15,265 nucleotides of DNA from a virus (Duplodnaviria; Heunggongvirae; Uroviricota; Caudoviricetes), in IMG/VR virus record IMGVR_UViG_2526164632_000028. One strand, given 5' to 3'. Shown here piece by piece: positions 9,090 through 13,140 of this stretch. The notes below the pieces were generated by a model. It made no database searches. It had not been told where the DNA came from and saw only the letters and a program-made list of their open reading frames with translations. The translations under genes were made by a program, and so were the position numbers. The stretch's first letter is position 1. Each line of letters starts with the position of its first letter.

Positions 9090-9860
9090 ATGGAAACCGT
9101 ATCTGACGCACTGAAAGCACTGAAAAAAGCCTCTTCACATGTGGTGGCAGCTCGCCTTGGAATCAGTCGTGAAGAGGCTGTCAACGAGCTGTGGGAACTC
9201 AAAAGAAATGGCGTCGTTGATAAAACTGGTCACACCTGGTTTCTGGCTGGCGAAGGTGAATCCCGGGTAACCGAAGAGCGGCCAGTAAAATCTGAAGCAC
9301 AGGATATGCTGACCGGGGAGGTCGAACAAAAAGTTACCGCAGACATGATGATTGAGTTTATCGGTCAGGATGGGGCTAAAACGTGTGAGGAACTGGCGGG
9401 TAAGTTCGGTGTCAGTACTCGCAAGGTTGCTTCCACGCTGGCGGTGGTAACCGCAACGGGGCGGCTGGCACGCGTTAATCAGAACGGTAAATTTCGTTAC
9501 TGCATGCCGGGCGATAATTTACCAGCAGAGCCGAAAGCCGCGCTGGTAACGGAAAGTGATGGTAAGGCCTTTCCTCAGCCAGCAGGTGCTGCGTTACCAG
9601 GCCGGGAAGCCGCAACACAGGAAGAAATTAAAACAGAAACTGTGGCGGACATTGTGCAGTCGTTGCCATCGTTTACCGAAACGCAAGCAGATGAGCTGAT
9701 TTTTCCGTCCCTGCGCAGGGCAAACCTGGCGCTGCGCAGGGCGAAAAGTGATGTTCAGAAGTGGGAGCGAGTCTGCGCCGCGCTGCGGGAGCTGAACAAG
9801 CACCGGGATATTGTTCGACAGATTACTGATTCTTCCCGCCGTGTTGTATCGGAAAAGTGA
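9090..9860 (+). CDS. hypothetical protein with two winged-helix-like repeats
   Basis: 256-aa ORF; ATG 9090 with SD GGAGG. Internal repeats AARLGISREEAVNELWELKRNGVVDKTGHTWFL and AGKFGVSTRKVASTLAVVTATGRLARVNQNGKFRYCM. No homology recognised. Confidence 0.65.
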   Translation: METVSDALKALKKASSHVVAARLGISREEAVNELWELKRNGVVDKTGHTWFLAGEGESRVTEERPVKSEAQDMLTGEVEQKVTADMMIEFIGQDGAKTCEELAGKFGVSTRKVASTLAVVTATGRLARVNQNGKFRYCMPGDNLPAEPKAALVTESDGKAFPQPAGAALPGREAATQEEIKTETVADIVQSLPSFTETQADELIFPSLRRANLALRRAKSDVQKWERVCAALRELNKHRDIVRQITDSSRRVVSEK

Positions 9861-9875
9861 TTGCCGGAGGCGCTT

Positions 9876-10298
9876 ATGGCAAAAGTATTTACACAAGAAG
9901 AGCGGGAAAAAATTAAAGGGCAGGTTGTTGAGCTAGTACGCCGGAGTGGGCGCGAGACGTTACGGCAACTGGAAGCCAAGACAGGTGCGACAAGATATCT
10001 GATGAGTGTTCTCGCCAGAGAGCTGGTTGCCAGTGGCGATGTATACAACTCTGGTTACGGGTTATTCCCGTCTGAACAGGCGCGTAAGGACTGGCAAAAC
10101 GCCCGCAAAAAACTCTCAAGGGCAAATCTGAAGAAACCATCTGTGGTTGATCCTGACCTTATCTGGCCATTACCAGACGGAGAAATACGCCGCTACGACA
10201 GGCGTCAAAACATAATCTGTAGCGAGTGCCGGAAGAGCGAAGCTATGCAGCGTGTACTGGCTTTCTATCAGGGTAATTTTCAGAAGGTGCTGTTGTGA
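9876..10298 (+). CDS. hypothetical protein with one winged-helix-like module related to the upstream gene
   Basis: ATG 9876 with SD GGAGG at 9866-9870 (tabulated ORF starts at TTG 9861). Motif VELVRRSGRETLRQLEAKTGATRYLMSVLARELVASGDV resembles the repeats in 9090-9860. C-terminal CSEC motif. Confidence 0.6.
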   Translation: MAKVFTQEEREKIKGQVVELVRRSGRETLRQLEAKTGATRYLMSVLARELVASGDVYNSGYGLFPSEQARKDWQNARKKLSRANLKKPSVVDPDLIWPLPDGEIRRYDRRQNIICSECRKSEAMQRVLAFYQGNFQKVLL

Positions 10299-10332
10299 GC
10301 CAAATTAACAATCGGAACTTCGTGAAGAGAAA

Positions 10333-10403
10333 GCATAATCCAAATCTGAATAATTAAGTTCAGCACTGTAAATAAAATTTAATCCTTAACTGGAGGTATA
10401 TCT
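10333..10403 (+). repeat. module-junction repeat, copy 1 (second copy at 11600-11668)
   Basis: AATCCAAATCTGAATAATTAAGTTCAGCACTGTAAATAAAATTTAATCCTTAACTGGAGGTATATCT versus AATCCAGAACTGAATAATTAAATTTAGCTCTGTTAAAAATTTAATCCTTAACCGGAGGGATTTCT, about 85% identical by eye. Copy 1 ends at the SD and ATG of ORF 10404. Confidence 0.55.
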
Positions 10404-10616
10404 ATGTCAAATACACAGAAAATTATTAACACTGAAAAATATAACGAGTGGGTGAAAAAATTCTCTGAGCAGATTTTTAAAATTACTGGCGACGAGAATG
10501 TGGCAAAAAATGAATTGGAACCGTGGACACCTGAAGGAAACGCACCAAATTATTGCTGGTGGGAGGTTGATCCGGTTGATGCTGCAAATGAAGCCATGAG
10601 TTACCACAACGATTAA
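10404..10616 (+). CDS. hypothetical small protein (70 aa), first gene of the cargo island
   Basis: ATG 10404 with SD GGAGG 7 nt upstream; MSNTQKIINTEKYNEWVKKFSEQIF...; AT-rich codon usage distinct from flanking modules. Confidence 0.55.
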   Translation: MSNTQKIINTEKYNEWVKKFSEQIFKITGDENVAKNELEPWTPEGNAPNYCWWEVDPVDAANEAMSYHND

Positions 10617-10621
10617 TGTCG

Positions 10622-10648
10622 GGAGGCCGCCCGAAAGGGCGGTAAGAA
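10622..10648 (+). promoter_or_regulatory. SD-plus-hairpin translation leader (GGAGG followed by a CCGCCC-GAAA-GGGCGG stem-loop) preceding ORF 10649
   Basis: GGAGG at 10622-10626; 6-bp GC stem with GAAA tetraloop at 10627-10642; ATG at 10649. No U-tract, so not a terminator. Near-identical 23-nt copy at 11686-11708. Confidence 0.5.
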
Positions 10649-10867
10649 ATGACTACATTATTCAGAAAAGAATATCCGCAAAAAAGTAGGGCGACAGAAT
10701 TTTTGTTTCTCATTCTGTTTATCGTATTGATGATACCGATATCCCCTCTAATTTTTGTCTGGGCAATCGGGAAAATAATTGAGCCAGTTACTGAATTGTA
10801 TAACGACGTGGTATGGGCGTCATTCAACACACTGCACAATAAAATTAATCCGTATAAGGAAAACTGA
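10649..10867 (+). CDS. hypothetical small membrane protein (72 aa, one predicted transmembrane helix)
   Basis: MTTLFRKEYPQKSRATEFLFLILFIVLMIPISPLIFVWAIGKII...; hydrophobic stretch of about 25 aa after a basic N-terminus; preceded by the SD-hairpin leader. Confidence 0.55.
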   Translation: MTTLFRKEYPQKSRATEFLFLILFIVLMIPISPLIFVWAIGKIIEPVTELYNDVVWASFNTLHNKINPYKEN

Positions 10868-10868
10868 T

Positions 10869-11132
10869 ATGGCAACTTTGACAAAAAAAGAACGGGCATG
10901 GTTGAACGAATTACAGGAAGTTCTTGATCGCTGTCCATCACCGAAAAAAATTGGCTTTTACACCATTGGCGATAAAAGCATTTACCTGTATGACCTACGC
11001 CGCATGGATGAAATCATGGAGGCTCTTGATAATCGTTCGTCGATGGATTGGTGTGTTGCTGTTCATGATATGAATGCAGGGTTTGATGAAAAGATTTTGT
11101 TCCCCTCATCAGTTGAAAGCACTGCGGGTTAA
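10869..11132 (+). CDS. hypothetical protein (87 aa)
   Basis: ATG 10869 one nt after the upstream stop, with SD AAGGAAAA; MATLTKKERAWLNELQEVLDRCPSPKKIGFYTIGDKSIYLYDLRRMDEIMEALD... Confidence 0.55.
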   Translation: MATLTKKERAWLNELQEVLDRCPSPKKIGFYTIGDKSIYLYDLRRMDEIMEALDNRSSMDWCVAVHDMNAGFDEKILFPSSVESTAG

Positions 11133-11142
11133 GGAGTAACAC

Positions 11143-11286
11143 ATGACCACTATTACCAAAGAACGTATTGAATTGTTCATTAAATTTTCAGGAGGCGGTA
11201 CTGTGAGTGAAATTAGCTATCAGGCTTCAATTACCGCTGGCATTCGCATCAAAGGAGAGGAGCATGGAAATAAAACCAGAGGATGA
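11143..11286 (+). CDS. hypothetical small protein (47 aa), overlapping the next gene
   Basis: ATG 11143 with strong SD AAGGAG 7 nt upstream; MTTITKERIELFIKFSGGGTVSEISYQASITAGIRIKGEEHGNKTRG. Overlaps ORF 11264 by 23 nt in a different frame. Confidence 0.4.
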   Translation: MTTITKERIELFIKFSGGGTVSEISYQASITAGIRIKGEEHGNKTRG

Positions 11287-11620
11287 GTTAAGCAATATCG
11301 TTTTATTTCCGGTAAAAGAGGATGACCCTCGTAATCAGGTTAATTTTCTTTATGAGCCATCGGAAAGACCATATTGTCATCACGCCTCTGTCCGGGTTGA
11401 CGAAAAAGAGCGTCAGGTCCGCTGTAAAATCTGCGGTGCAGTTGTGGAACCATTTGACTGGATGCTCTCTGTGGCGAAAAGAGAAACCAGACTGGCAGAT
11501 GATGTAAGGCTCTTGCGTCAGGAGGAGCGGGAAAGGCGAAAAAATATAGAAAAGCTAATTCAGATTGAGCGTAACGCGAAAGCGCGGATACGCAGGGCGA
11601 CAAAATCCAGAACTGAATAA
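11264..11620 (+). CDS. hypothetical zinc-finger-like protein with basic coiled-coil C-terminus (118 aa)
   Basis: ATG 11264 with SD AAGGAG (alternative GTG start at 11207). Motif YCHHASVRVDEKERQVRCKICG, then an Arg/Lys/Glu-rich tail LLRQEERERRKNIEKLIQIERNAKARIRRATKSRTE. Confidence 0.55.
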   Translation: MEIKPEDELSNIVLFPVKEDDPRNQVNFLYEPSERPYCHHASVRVDEKERQVRCKICGAVVEPFDWMLSVAKRETRLADDVRLLRQEERERRKNIEKLIQIERNAKARIRRATKSRTE

Positions 11621-11668
11621 TTAAATTTAGCTCTGTTAAAAATTTAATCCTTAACCGGAGGGATTTCT
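11600..11668 (+). repeat. module-junction repeat, copy 2
   Basis: See copy 1 at 10333-10403. Copy 2 begins within the last codons of ORF 11264-11620 and is followed by the second SD-hairpin leader. Confidence 0.55.
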
Positions 11669-11684
11669 GCACCCTCAGAACATC

Positions 11685-11713
11685 AGGAGGCCGCCCGAAA
11701 GGGCGGTAGTTAA
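11685..11713 (+). promoter_or_regulatory. SD-plus-hairpin translation leader, copy 2, preceding ORF 11714
   Basis: AGGAGG at 11685-11690; CCGCCC-GAAA-GGGCGG at 11691-11706; ATG at 11714. Confidence 0.5.
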
Positions 11714-11896
11714 ATGCGAAAGTTTAAAATAATTATTGAAACGGGAATAGCCGGTGGAGATTTCGAGGATGAATTCGAAGTGGATGATGATGCGACGCCT
11801 GATGAAATACATGACGAAGCAAAAGATATTTTCTTTAACTACTGCAATTACTCATATCACGAAATAAAAGACGAAGAGGAAGAACAAAATGGCTGA
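11714..11896 (+). CDS. hypothetical highly acidic small protein (60 aa)
   Basis: MRKFKIIIETGIAGGDFEDEFEVDDDATPDEIHDEAKDIFFNYCNYSYHEIKDEEEEQNG, Asp/Glu-rich; preceded by the SD-hairpin leader. Confidence 0.5.
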   Translation: MRKFKIIIETGIAGGDFEDEFEVDDDATPDEIHDEAKDIFFNYCNYSYHEIKDEEEEQNG

Positions 11897-12065
11897 TTTT
11901 GGTTCAACTAAATACAACGTCGGTTTTGAAGAATGGCATGAACTGTTAATGGACTATGCAGAGTTACGTGGTGGCAGTGCTGCTGATGCTGAAGCATGGC
12001 GTGATGATTATGAAGCAGGAAAAACTCCGGTCGAAGCATATTGTGATGAGTGGGGCGATGAATGA
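11889..12065 (+). CDS. hypothetical acidic small protein (58 aa)
   Basis: ATG 11889 lies 5 nt before the upstream stop (ATGGCTGA); MADFGSTKYNVGFEEWHELLMDYAELRGGSAADAEAWRDDYEAGKTPVEAYCDEWGDE. Confidence 0.5.
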   Translation: MADFGSTKYNVGFEEWHELLMDYAELRGGSAADAEAWRDDYEAGKTPVEAYCDEWGDE

Positions 12066-12377
12066 GCGAGGTTAATTATCAGGAAGGGCATGAAACGGCG
12101 GGGCAAGCAAAAACAGTGGCATGGCGATATCGCTACGTGAAAAAAAGGCGTTACGGACTTTCAGGGGAAGTAGTGGTCTGGTGACTGGAAATATGTACCG
12201 AAAAAAGAGGATTGTAACGACAGGCCGAACTATGAAATTCAGGCCTTATTCACTGCCCCGCCAGTCCCGGTTACATCAGAAGAACTGGTTAAAGCTGTGC
12301 ACTTTTATGAACAACTAAAATGCGAAAATCCACCAGCATCCGGAAACCTGATTACAGATTCCCAGATAAGGCAATGA
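12062..12377 (+). pseudogene. hypothetical gene apparently split by a +1 frameshift near 12174-12184
   Basis: ATG 12062 overlaps the upstream stop (ATGA); frame gives MSEVNYQEGHETAGQAKTVAWRYRYVKKRRYGLSGEVVVW then TGA at 12182-12184. The +1 frame is open from 12174 to 12377 with protein-like content (...DWKYVPKKEDCNDRPNYEIQALFTAPPVPVTSEELVKAVHFYEQLKCENPPASGNLITDSQIRQ) but no start codon. Confidence 0.35.
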
Positions 12378-12547
12378 GCTACCTGGCGCAGAACGGGCTG
12401 ATAAGTATGGGGAATGTTTTACGATGAATATTTAGACTAAAGAGTTTGTAACGCTATGTAAGTGATTTTTTCTGGTTTAGATATTTATATGTCCGGCTAA
12501 ATTGAGGTGTGTTTAAATGTTATTGCACATTGATTGTAGGGGGAATA

Positions 12548-12685
12548 ATGAAAAACGCATTGCAGTTTTTGTTTGTTGCGTTCTGGTTGTTCGCATCATG
12601 TATGCCCATCATCTTCACAGCAAGGTATATGGAAAAAGTTGATGTTTTGATATTAATGTTTGGACATATAAATGCCCTTTTTTAG
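12548..12685 (+). CDS. hypothetical 45-aa hydrophobic peptide (candidate small membrane protein or toxin)
   Basis: ATG 12548 with SD AGGGGG 5-8 nt upstream; MKNALQFLFVAFWLFASCMPIIFTARYMEKVDVLILMFGHINALF. Below the 60-aa cutoff of the ORF table. In an AT-rich intergenic stretch upstream of the hok locus. Confidence 0.4.
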   Translation: MKNALQFLFVAFWLFASCMPIIFTARYMEKVDVLILMFGHINALF

Positions 12686-12928
12686 GGGTGTTCATGGCGG
12701 TCATGTGCATTGAATACTGGCGGTAAATACAGCGAACGCCATTGGTTTAGTTGGATATTTACTGTGCCGGACAAAAACGGTTTGCGGGGAAATCTTAGTT
12801 AAGTAGAATGACTGCGGGTGCTTGAGGCTATCTGTCTCAGGCATGAACACCAAAAGGCAGATAGAGAAAAGCCCCAGTTAACATTACGCGTCCTGCAAGA
12901 CGCTTAACATTAATCTGAGGCCATATCT

Positions 12929-12988
12929 ATGCGACACATAGAGATTAGCCTCTTACGGACCGAAAGGTCAAGGAGAAGCAGGCTATGA
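12929..12988 (+). CDS. mok-like leader ORF coupled to hok (19 codons)
   Basis: ATG 12929 with SD GAGG 9 nt upstream; MRHIEISLLRTERSRRSRL; its TGA (12986-12988) overlaps the hok ATG (12985-12987). Confidence 0.4.
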   Translation: MRHIEISLLRTERSRRSRL

Positions 12989-13140
12989 AGCAGCAAAAGG
13001 CGATGTTAATCGCCCTGATCGTCATCTGTTTAACCGTCATAGTGACGGCACTGGTAACGAGGAAAGACCTCTGCGAGGTACGAATCCGAACCGGCCAGAC
13101 GGAGGTCGCTGTCTTCACAGCTTACGAACCTGAGGAGTAA
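12985..13140 (+). CDS. hokD: Hok-family type I toxin (HokD/RelF-like)
   Basis: 51-aa ORF MKQQKAMLIALIVICLTVIVTALVTRKDLCEVRIRTGQTEVAVFTAYEPEE, recognised as Hok/Gef family. Followed by a 9-bp-stem GAAA hairpin (13148-13169) and a terminator. In Qin, hokD lies next to rem and ydfU, as here. Confidence 0.85.
   Translation: MKQQKAMLIALIVICLTVIVTALVTRKDLCEVRIRTGQTEVAVFTAYEPEE

Follow-up and report, generated by a model that had tools for sequence, protein, structure and literature searches.

A repeated Shine-Dalgarno-hairpin element in lambdoid prophages: a probable portable translation-initiation cassette and recombination junction

In phage T4, a structure lying between the Shine-Dalgarno (SD) sequence and the AUG shortens the distance between the two from 22 to 5 nucleotides (nt) in gene 38 and from 27 to 11 nt in gene 25 (reviewed in PMC3014915), and mutations that destabilise these structures lower initiation (PMC3014915, citing Nivinskas 1999; Malys & Nivinskas 2009). 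A sequence with the same layout was found in a 15,265-nt stretch of viral DNA (Caudoviricetes; IMG/VR record IMGVR_UViG_2526164632_000028), referred to below, at its full length, as the window. This 26-nt element consists of a GGAGG directly followed by a G+C-rich hairpin, and is present in two copies that precede two unrelated small genes, one coding for a DUF4014 protein and the other for a DUF7167 protein. In enterobacterial lambdoid prophages the element probably acts as a portable cassette for translation initiation, in which a hairpin bridges the gap between the SD and the AUG, and probably serves as a recombination junction as well. The principle is known from T4; the element is a new and unusually widespread example of it.

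Two further kinds of described sequences are relevant to the second role. T4-type phages contain promoter-early stem-loop (PeSL) cassettes, each made of a strong sigma-70 promoter and a transcription-terminating stem-loop, and recombination between these repeated motifs shuffles the small non-essential genes that they flank in a hyperplastic region (Arbiol et al. 2010, PMC2839356; Comeau et al. 2014, PMC4122927). The element resembles the PeSL cassettes in being a repeated motif set among small accessory genes, and the reciprocal swap between the window and phage ArgO145 described below is the same kind of event. It differs from them in lacking both a promoter-like site and a U-tract, and would act on translation rather than on transcription. 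Genome comparisons of the lambdoid phages HK97, HK022 and HK620 are said to have revealed short conserved 'linker' sequences at the boundaries between modules, which are thought to guide homologous exchange; reportedly, neither a translational role nor a hairpin-bridged SD was assigned to them. The element would be like these boundaries in that a short sequence is common to the edges of otherwise unrelated modules.

The core of the element, the 23-mer GGAGGCCGCCCGAAAGGGCGGTA, occurred exactly twice on the + strand of the window, without mismatches, at 10622-10644 and 11686-11708, which are the coordinates given in a preliminary description of this DNA. No other match was found in the window when up to three mismatches were allowed, and none appeared in 200 dinucleotide-preserving shuffles. 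Identity between the copies extended to 26 nt (10619-10644 versus 11683-11708, 25 of 26 positions), with the consensus UCR-GGAGG-CCGCCC-GAAA-GGGCGG-UA. The ATG that follows begins at +5 or +6 nt from the end of the 23-mer (with 4 or 5 bases between them), at the low edge of the 5-8 nt first proposed, while the distance of about 23 nt initially estimated from SD to start codon was read as 22 nt for copy 1 and 23 nt for copy 2. The start codons at 10649 and 11714 are those chosen by the Prokaryotic Genome Annotation Pipeline (PGAP) in a 99.7% identical genome. The Pfam match to DUF4014 (PF13198, E 5e-26) aligned profile positions 1-72 of 72 from the first residue of the protein, and the match to DUF7167 (PF23768, E 8e-15) aligned from residue 2.

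A 6-bp GC stem with a GAAA loop had been proposed next to the GGAGG. Folding predicted seven pairs, six G-C plus a closing G.U, with a minimum free energy of -15.5 kcal/mol (z = -3.0 for copy 1 and -4.0 for copy 2). When the mRNA was folded in 106-nt contexts the unpaired probability of the stem was about 0, i.e. the predicted probability of hairpin formation was about 1. The spacer between stem and AUG was predicted to be mostly unpaired in both copies; the AUG was less open (unpaired-probability deciles of about 2-4 in copy 1 and 3-5 in copy 2), and the GGAGG, only partly open (deciles of about 5-8), would cost some 3 kcal/mol to open. The proposal that folding brings the SD to a normal distance from the start codon agrees with these predictions, which leave an effective spacing of 6 and 7 nt.

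Among anti-SD sites up to 70 nt from each AUG, the hairpin-abutting GGAGG ranked first and was the only usable one, with net energies of -6.2 kcal/mol in copy 1 and -7.0 kcal/mol in copy 2; the canonical SDs of three neighbouring control genes gave -4.5 to -8.4 kcal/mol, a range that includes both values. An energy scan detected no favourable anti-SD site at positions -5 to -15 in either leader, and the spacers of the two window copies contain no GGA, GAG or AGG. All six other genes checked within 10404-11889 have a G/A-rich SD-like sequence 5-8 nt upstream of the start, clear-cut for those at 10404, 11143 and 11264. The lack of an SD at the normal distance thus sets the genes behind the hairpin apart.

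This arrangement can be set beside that of T4 gene 38, the leader of which reads UAAGGAG-AGGGGC-UUCG-GCCCUU-CUAAAU-AUG, with a linear spacing of 22 nt and a folding energy of -16.7 kcal/mol. In gene 38, as in both window copies, the SD is too distant in linear terms (22 nt in gene 38; 22 and 23 nt in the window), a G+C-rich tetraloop hairpin abuts the SD and lies wholly between it and the AUG, and a short A/U-rich spacer follows; after folding, the effective spacing is 5-11 nt in T4 genes 38 and 25 and a predicted 6 and 7 nt in the window. The gene 38 hairpin sits just past the gene 37 stop codon, and that of copy 1 likewise begins 10 nt past the stop codon of the upstream gene. The loops differ (UUCG in gene 38; GAAA, sometimes GGCA, in the element). 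Further, each T4 site serves one gene and is inherited vertically in T-even phages, while the element is a portable repeat in temperate lambdoid prophages, found ahead of at least five gene families and at recombination breakpoints. Translational function has been demonstrated for the T4 sites; for the element, use of the upstream GGAGG by ribosomes across the hairpin is what the comparison and the predictions suggest. In the + strand transcript of the early operon, folding of the hairpin would loop out 16-18 nt and so reduce the distance between the GGAGG and the start codon of any gene joined to the element from 22-25 nt to an effective 6-9 nt. A 30S subunit would then bind the GGAGG through its anti-SD, forming a duplex that may stack coaxially on the hairpin, and, with the hairpin extruded, would position the AUG in the P site; initiation of this kind has been demonstrated by experiment in T4 genes 38 and 25.

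The genes that follow the element, and their homologues elsewhere, were compared in several hundred fetched loci from related prophages. The search for the 23-mer in other prophages suggested by the preliminary description led to at least five unrelated gene families downstream of the element, most with the ATG 6-9 nt past the stem. Upstream, only two contexts were seen, the end of a 70-codon gene or a conserved linker. The spacer after the stem measured 6 nt in front of DUF4014 genes, 7 nt in front of DUF7167 genes, 8 nt in front of a MAELTKEW-type open reading frame (ORF) and 9 nt in front of a 147-amino-acid (aa) family, in no case with an SD-like triplet. Ahead of the gene for a 146-aa protein with a Q-antiterminator domain the spacer measured 11 nt and contained a separate GGAG. 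On the 3' side of the stem the sequence was always A/U-rich and predicted to be single-stranded. The element was present at 156 of the 194 starts of DUF4014 homologues in these loci; the 38 homologues without it all had AGGAG or GGGAG 4-6 nt ahead of the same start, in at least five distinct upstream contexts. Similarly, AAGGAG, AAGGAA or GAGGA preceded all 27 element-less starts matched by an MTELT-type 147-aa protein (30-61% identity). Fold, anti-SD energy, spacing, SD-bearing homologues and the geometry of T4 gene 38 thus all agree with a structured translation-initiation element, as initially put forward.

Phage ArgO145 also contains two copies of the element, and the genes behind them are swapped relative to the window. 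The left flank of window copy 1 matched that of ArgO145 copy 1 (97% identity), while its right flank matched that of ArgO145 copy 2 (95%). Reciprocally, window copy 2 shared its left flank with ArgO145 copy 2 (90%) and its right flank with ArgO145 copy 1 (100%). All other combinations of flanks gave about 50%. These reciprocal matches indicate that the element was the crossover point. With all partners, homology stopped within 2-3 nt of the stem. Since the same short sequence lies ahead of many accessory genes, the element would serve as a homology patch for the exchange of downstream genes; its host prophages often encode RecET or Red recombinases. Recombination at the element would explain the presence of two copies before two unrelated genes in the window. 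This role as a widespread module junction had been overlooked in the preliminary description, as had the longer repeat of which the 23-mer is the best-conserved core, with an intergenic linker upstream that is 81-90% identical between its two copies (10334-10403 and 11601-11668).

The form comprising linker plus hairpin was found in 2266 of 5426 complete Escherichia coli genomes, at up to six places per genome and at least 2842 places in all. Deposited phage records yielded only 21 cases, all of them in E. coli lambdoid or Shiga toxin (Stx) phages. When contigs of species-representative genomes were scanned, lambdoid-type copies appeared only in E. coli, Shigella flexneri and Citrobacter braakii. 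A further lambdoid-type copy, on a 3-kb contig of a 'Collinsella' metagenome-assembled genome, looks like contamination, and 25 matches in other phyla proved to be ordinary terminators with extended stems (GGAGG...CCUC) and T-runs. A search of full-text literature returned no paper with the 16-mer hairpin core, DUF4014 or DUF7167; a preprint on the Pas small RNA is unrelated to the element.

Sequence variation was surveyed by flank-anchored scans in which the hairpin was left free, and 19 distinct 22-mers were obtained. Most changes in the stem were C-to-U substitutions that keep a G.U pair (C7U, C9U, C10U, C11U and C19U, with C9U in 28 of 202 sampled copies), and G5A turned the closing G.U into A-U. 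The common stem variants fold at -10.6 to -13.3 kcal/mol. Pair-breaking haplotypes were rare: two were seen, in three loci and in one, folding weakly at -6.4 and -5.7 kcal/mol. These variants are no more than suggestive of selection on pairing in the + strand RNA. The SD core was damaged (GGAAG, GUAGG) in 3 of 6 haplotypes that lack a following ATG, as against 2 of 30 that have one (Fisher p = 0.024; haplotypes not independent of one another). Diverged relatives were sought in the fetched loci as any G+C-rich hairpin of five pairs with a loop of 4 nt, lying between an RGAG and an ATG; none was found beyond the known family.

Several observations weigh against translation initiation as the function of the element. 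The hairpin is kept in three downstream contexts without an adjacent start codon, among them a convergent two-gene module and a QueH gene lying about 60 nt away; initiation is therefore not the sole reason for its persistence. A few copies of the DUF7167 gene (loci L206 and L239) lack the GGAGG and the outer 5' arm, and their ORFs are still intact. In its sequence the stem is not conserved above its surroundings, since 7 of its 12 sites vary, as against 28% of coding sites, and the loop, GAAA in most copies, can also be GGCA or UAAA and so is not strictly GNRA. The sampled variants included no compensatory double substitution in the stem, in a family that is young (mean identity 92%) and for which the shuffle control was uninformative. 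In addition, the excess of C>U over G>A among stem changes (5 versus 2 site types) is inseparable from the same bias in the neighbouring coding region (10 of 23 C sites versus 9 of 37 G sites). Finally, the element is absent from the Rac prophage of strain K-12, so that published ribosome-profiling and other data from this model strain do not apply to it.

Some of these points would be accounted for if the hairpin were an intercistronic RNA-stability or processing structure, shielding the upstream segment from 3'-to-5' exonucleases after an endonucleolytic cut in the A/U-rich stretch 3' of the stem. In that case the position of the GGAGG would be fortuitous, and translation of the downstream genes would be SD-independent, relying on an A-rich leader with S1, on near-leaderless RNA or on reinitiation. 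An A/U-rich single-stranded stretch is the usual setting for RNase E cleavage, and such sequence always follows the stem; the hairpin is retained where no start codon adjoins it; and both copy 1 and the T4 gene 38 hairpin lie just behind the stop codon of the upstream gene. However, in copy 2 and in most relatives a non-coding linker precedes the hairpin, which lies about 70 nt past the nearest upstream stop codon. Nor would this role explain that the genes borne by the element lack another SD while their homologues elsewhere always have one, or that four unrelated families keep the ATG within 6-9 nt of the stem, a larger distance being seen only for a gene that brings an SD of its own. As an alternative to initiation we consider it rather unlikely, although the two are compatible. 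That the element is a pure recombination linker, i.e. shared homology or a favoured point of breakage and joining in which the GGAGG and hairpin are passengers with no function at the RNA level, is improbable. The reciprocal swap precisely at the element, the loss of homology with partners 2-3 nt from the stem, the ordinary conservation of stem and SD relative to neighbouring DNA, and the existence of junctions with non-gene DNA would all be expected from such a linker, but it leaves unexplained how downstream genes without another SD are translated, why the spacing is confined to 6-9 nt, and why the frequent stem variants preserve pairing in the coding-strand RNA.

A regulatory role for the hairpin was also considered. 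A phage or host protein might, in line with the binding site for an RNA-binding regulator offered as an alternative in the preliminary description, bind hairpin and GGAGG as a shared operator and control the translation of all cassette genes, in the manner of T4 RegA or of the MS2 coat protein operator. An identical hairpin and SD before several genes of one operon (up to six copies per genome) would suit such control, and a protein bound to a hairpin that abuts the SD would occlude the latter. On the other hand, no candidate RNA-binding protein was identified, the loop, usually a determinant of recognition, varies (GAAA, GGCA, UAAA), the cassette occurs in prophages with differing regulatory regions (early-left in Stx phages, early-right in the window), and nothing in the data requires a protein; we regard an operator as very unlikely. 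The broader version, in which a single trans-acting factor (a phage- or host-encoded protein that binds RNA, or a small RNA pairing with the GGAGG or the 5' arm) switches the exchangeable accessory genes jointly, appears to us just as improbable; if it were true, any gene recombined behind the cassette would automatically join a translational regulon. Least of all is the hairpin expected to act on RNA polymerase as a terminator, an attenuator or an N-utilisation (boxB-like) site. It is true that a G+C-rich GNRA hairpin is like a terminator stem and loosely like lambda boxB, and that the same 16-nt core, CCGCCC-GAAA-GGGCGG, forms terminator stems in many unrelated bacteria and phages. In those terminators, however, the stem is extended (GGAGG...CCUC) and a T-run follows, while in the element no sequence complementary to the GGAGG lies 3' of the stem, which ends at the G.U and is followed by UAAGAA-AUG or UAGUUAA-AUG. 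The hairpin is succeeded by UAAGAAAUG or UAGUUAAAUG, with no U-tract, and a promoter and terminator scan made no call at either leader and no promoter call in either linker, in line with the earlier view that this is not a terminator. The element does not match a lambdoid nut site either: no + strand boxA (CGCUCUUA-like) lies within 1 kb upstream of either copy, matches elsewhere being at chance level, the loop has 4 nt and that of boxB 5 nt, and both copies lie about 3.5-4.7 kb downstream of the start of cro, deep in an operon among genes that must all be transcribed. An Rfam 15 scan of 9800-12800 at E values up to 10 gave no covariance-model match at either copy. Going by these features, a role in transcription is largely refuted by the sequence.

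Should ribosomes indeed initiate from the GGAGG across the hairpin, the element would amount to a structured, plug-and-play ribosome-binding site of natural origin: a single unit of 26 nt that serves many unrelated genes and is present in more than 40% of complete E. coli genomes. The split ribosome-binding-site mechanism, documented so far for two T4 genes, would thereby be extended to temperate phages, and the element would offer a handy system for studying how the 30S subunit accommodates an extruded hairpin, with natural variants in the spacer (6-9 nt), in G.U pairs of the stem and in the loop. For annotation, programs that require an SD at 5-10 nt would rate these starts as lacking one. 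Lambdoid prophages would also share with T4-type phages and their PeSLs the use of a short regulatory cassette as a seam for the exchange of accessory genes. The value of the element lies in this breadth and in its experimental convenience rather than in surprise.

Table 1. Positions of the two element copies, their parts and the adjoining features in the window.
Feature	Position	Strand	Remarks
Linker copy 1	10334-10403	+	Ends in GGAGG-7 nt-ATG, an ordinary ribosome-binding site of the 70-codon gene
Gene A, 70 codons	10404-10616	+	In the ORF list; PGAP coding sequence in locus L002; between linker and element in copy 1, absent from copy 2
Mini-ORF MSGGRPKGR*, nine codons	10616-10645	+	Runs through hairpin copy 1; ATG overlaps gene A stop (TAATG); stop 3 nt ahead of ATG 10649
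SD copy 1, GGAGG	10622-10626	+	Linear gap to AUG 10649, 22 nt
Hairpin copy 1	10626-10643	+	Closing G.U, six G-C pairs, GAAA loop
5' arm copy 1, CCGCCC	10627-10632	+	
Loop copy 1, GAAA	10633-10636	+	
3' arm copy 1, GGGCGG	10637-10642	+	
Spacer copy 1, UAAGAA	10643-10648	+	6 nt, A/U-rich, no SD-like triplet
DUF4014 gene, 72 aa	10649-10867	+	Behind copy 1
Linker copy 2	11601-11668	+	Contains a relic GGAGGG, then GCA in place of the copy 1 ATG; runs straight into the element
Relic GGAGGG	11657-11662	+	In linker copy 2
CCCUC	11672-11676	+	9 nt downstream of the relic GGAGGG, its predicted partner in the minimum-free-energy fold of the 106-nt context
SD copy 2, GGAGG	11686-11690	+	Linear gap to AUG 11714, 23 nt
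Hairpin copy 2	11690-11707	+	Same as copy 1
5' arm copy 2	11691-11696	+	
Loop copy 2	11697-11700	+	
3' arm copy 2	11701-11706	+	
Spacer copy 2, UAGUUAA	11707-11713	+	7 nt, A/U-rich, no SD-like triplet
DUF7167 gene, 60 aa	11714-11896	+	Behind copy 2

Gene A, which separates linker and element in copy 1 only (Table 1), gave no match in a Pfam search. In the predicted fold of copy 2, pairing of the CCCUC with the relic GGAGGG leaves the downstream SD free. The CCCUC is often mutated among relatives and is probably non-essential. In the fold of a shorter fragment it pairs instead with the functional GGAGG at 11686-11690, so a two-state leader is conceivable. The mini-ORF that runs through the hairpin of copy 1 is kept where gene A lies upstream, in ArgO145 as well, and only there; a relay of ribosomes from it was rejected as a general mechanism, since three-frame translation showed that copy 2 has no start codon in the matching frame. 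A 20-codon remnant ORF at 10296-10358 (GTG AGC CAA ... AAT AAT TAA) resembles the 118-aa zinc-ribbon-like gene at 11264-11620 with an internal deletion, and repeat pairs occur nearby (10275-10313 with 11183-11221, and 10334-10375 with 11601-11642). If this reading holds, the segment upstream of copy 1 is a decayed duplicate of that upstream of copy 2.

The window corresponds to a Rac/Qin-like lambdoid prophage with a potC-adjacent integration, a 99.7% identical copy of which is present in E. coli O111:H2 strain 12A (NZ_CP077479). According to the annotation of that copy, genes for an integrase, an excisionase, an 823-aa exonuclease, DicB and YdfC lie on the - strand and are followed by a LexA-family repressor gene, while the + strand carries cro, ydaT, replication genes, DUF1627, DUF977 and then a run of small genes that includes the DUF4014 and DUF7167 genes. 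These small genes are shared with Stx-converting phages such as ArgO145, where they lie in the early-left ea22 region; in the window they form part of the early-right operon.

Some of the sequences found next to the element in related prophages deserve mention. In L206 and L239 the leader ccctcagGCCCGAAAGGGCGGtagtgaaATG, about 45 nt upstream of the DUF7167 start, retains a 4-pair hairpin and has no obvious SD. The convergent module directly after the element consists of two - strand genes, for proteins of 184 and 300 aa (L016, 9416-10869; also L108 and, in C. braakii, L305); it had no match in Pfam or PADLOC and could be an accessory or defence cassette of an uncharacterised kind. The QueH epoxyqueuosine reductase gene (PF02677, E 1.6e-65), which has its own leader about 60 nt past the element (L007, 2106-2792; also L294 and L302; S. 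flexneri and E. coli), is a tRNA-modification gene carried as prophage cargo. The 146-aa protein (L025, 454-891) contains a Phage_antitermQ domain at residues 62-145 (E 1.5e-23), and its place amid small accessory genes is odd for a Q-like protein. Downstream of the two element copies in the window, the counterpart of 12062-12427 is annotated by PGAP as a frameshifted pseudogene, and a hokD type I toxin gene lies at about 12985-13140. A near-identical prophage of strain FDAARGOS_1059 bears an IS679 insertion.

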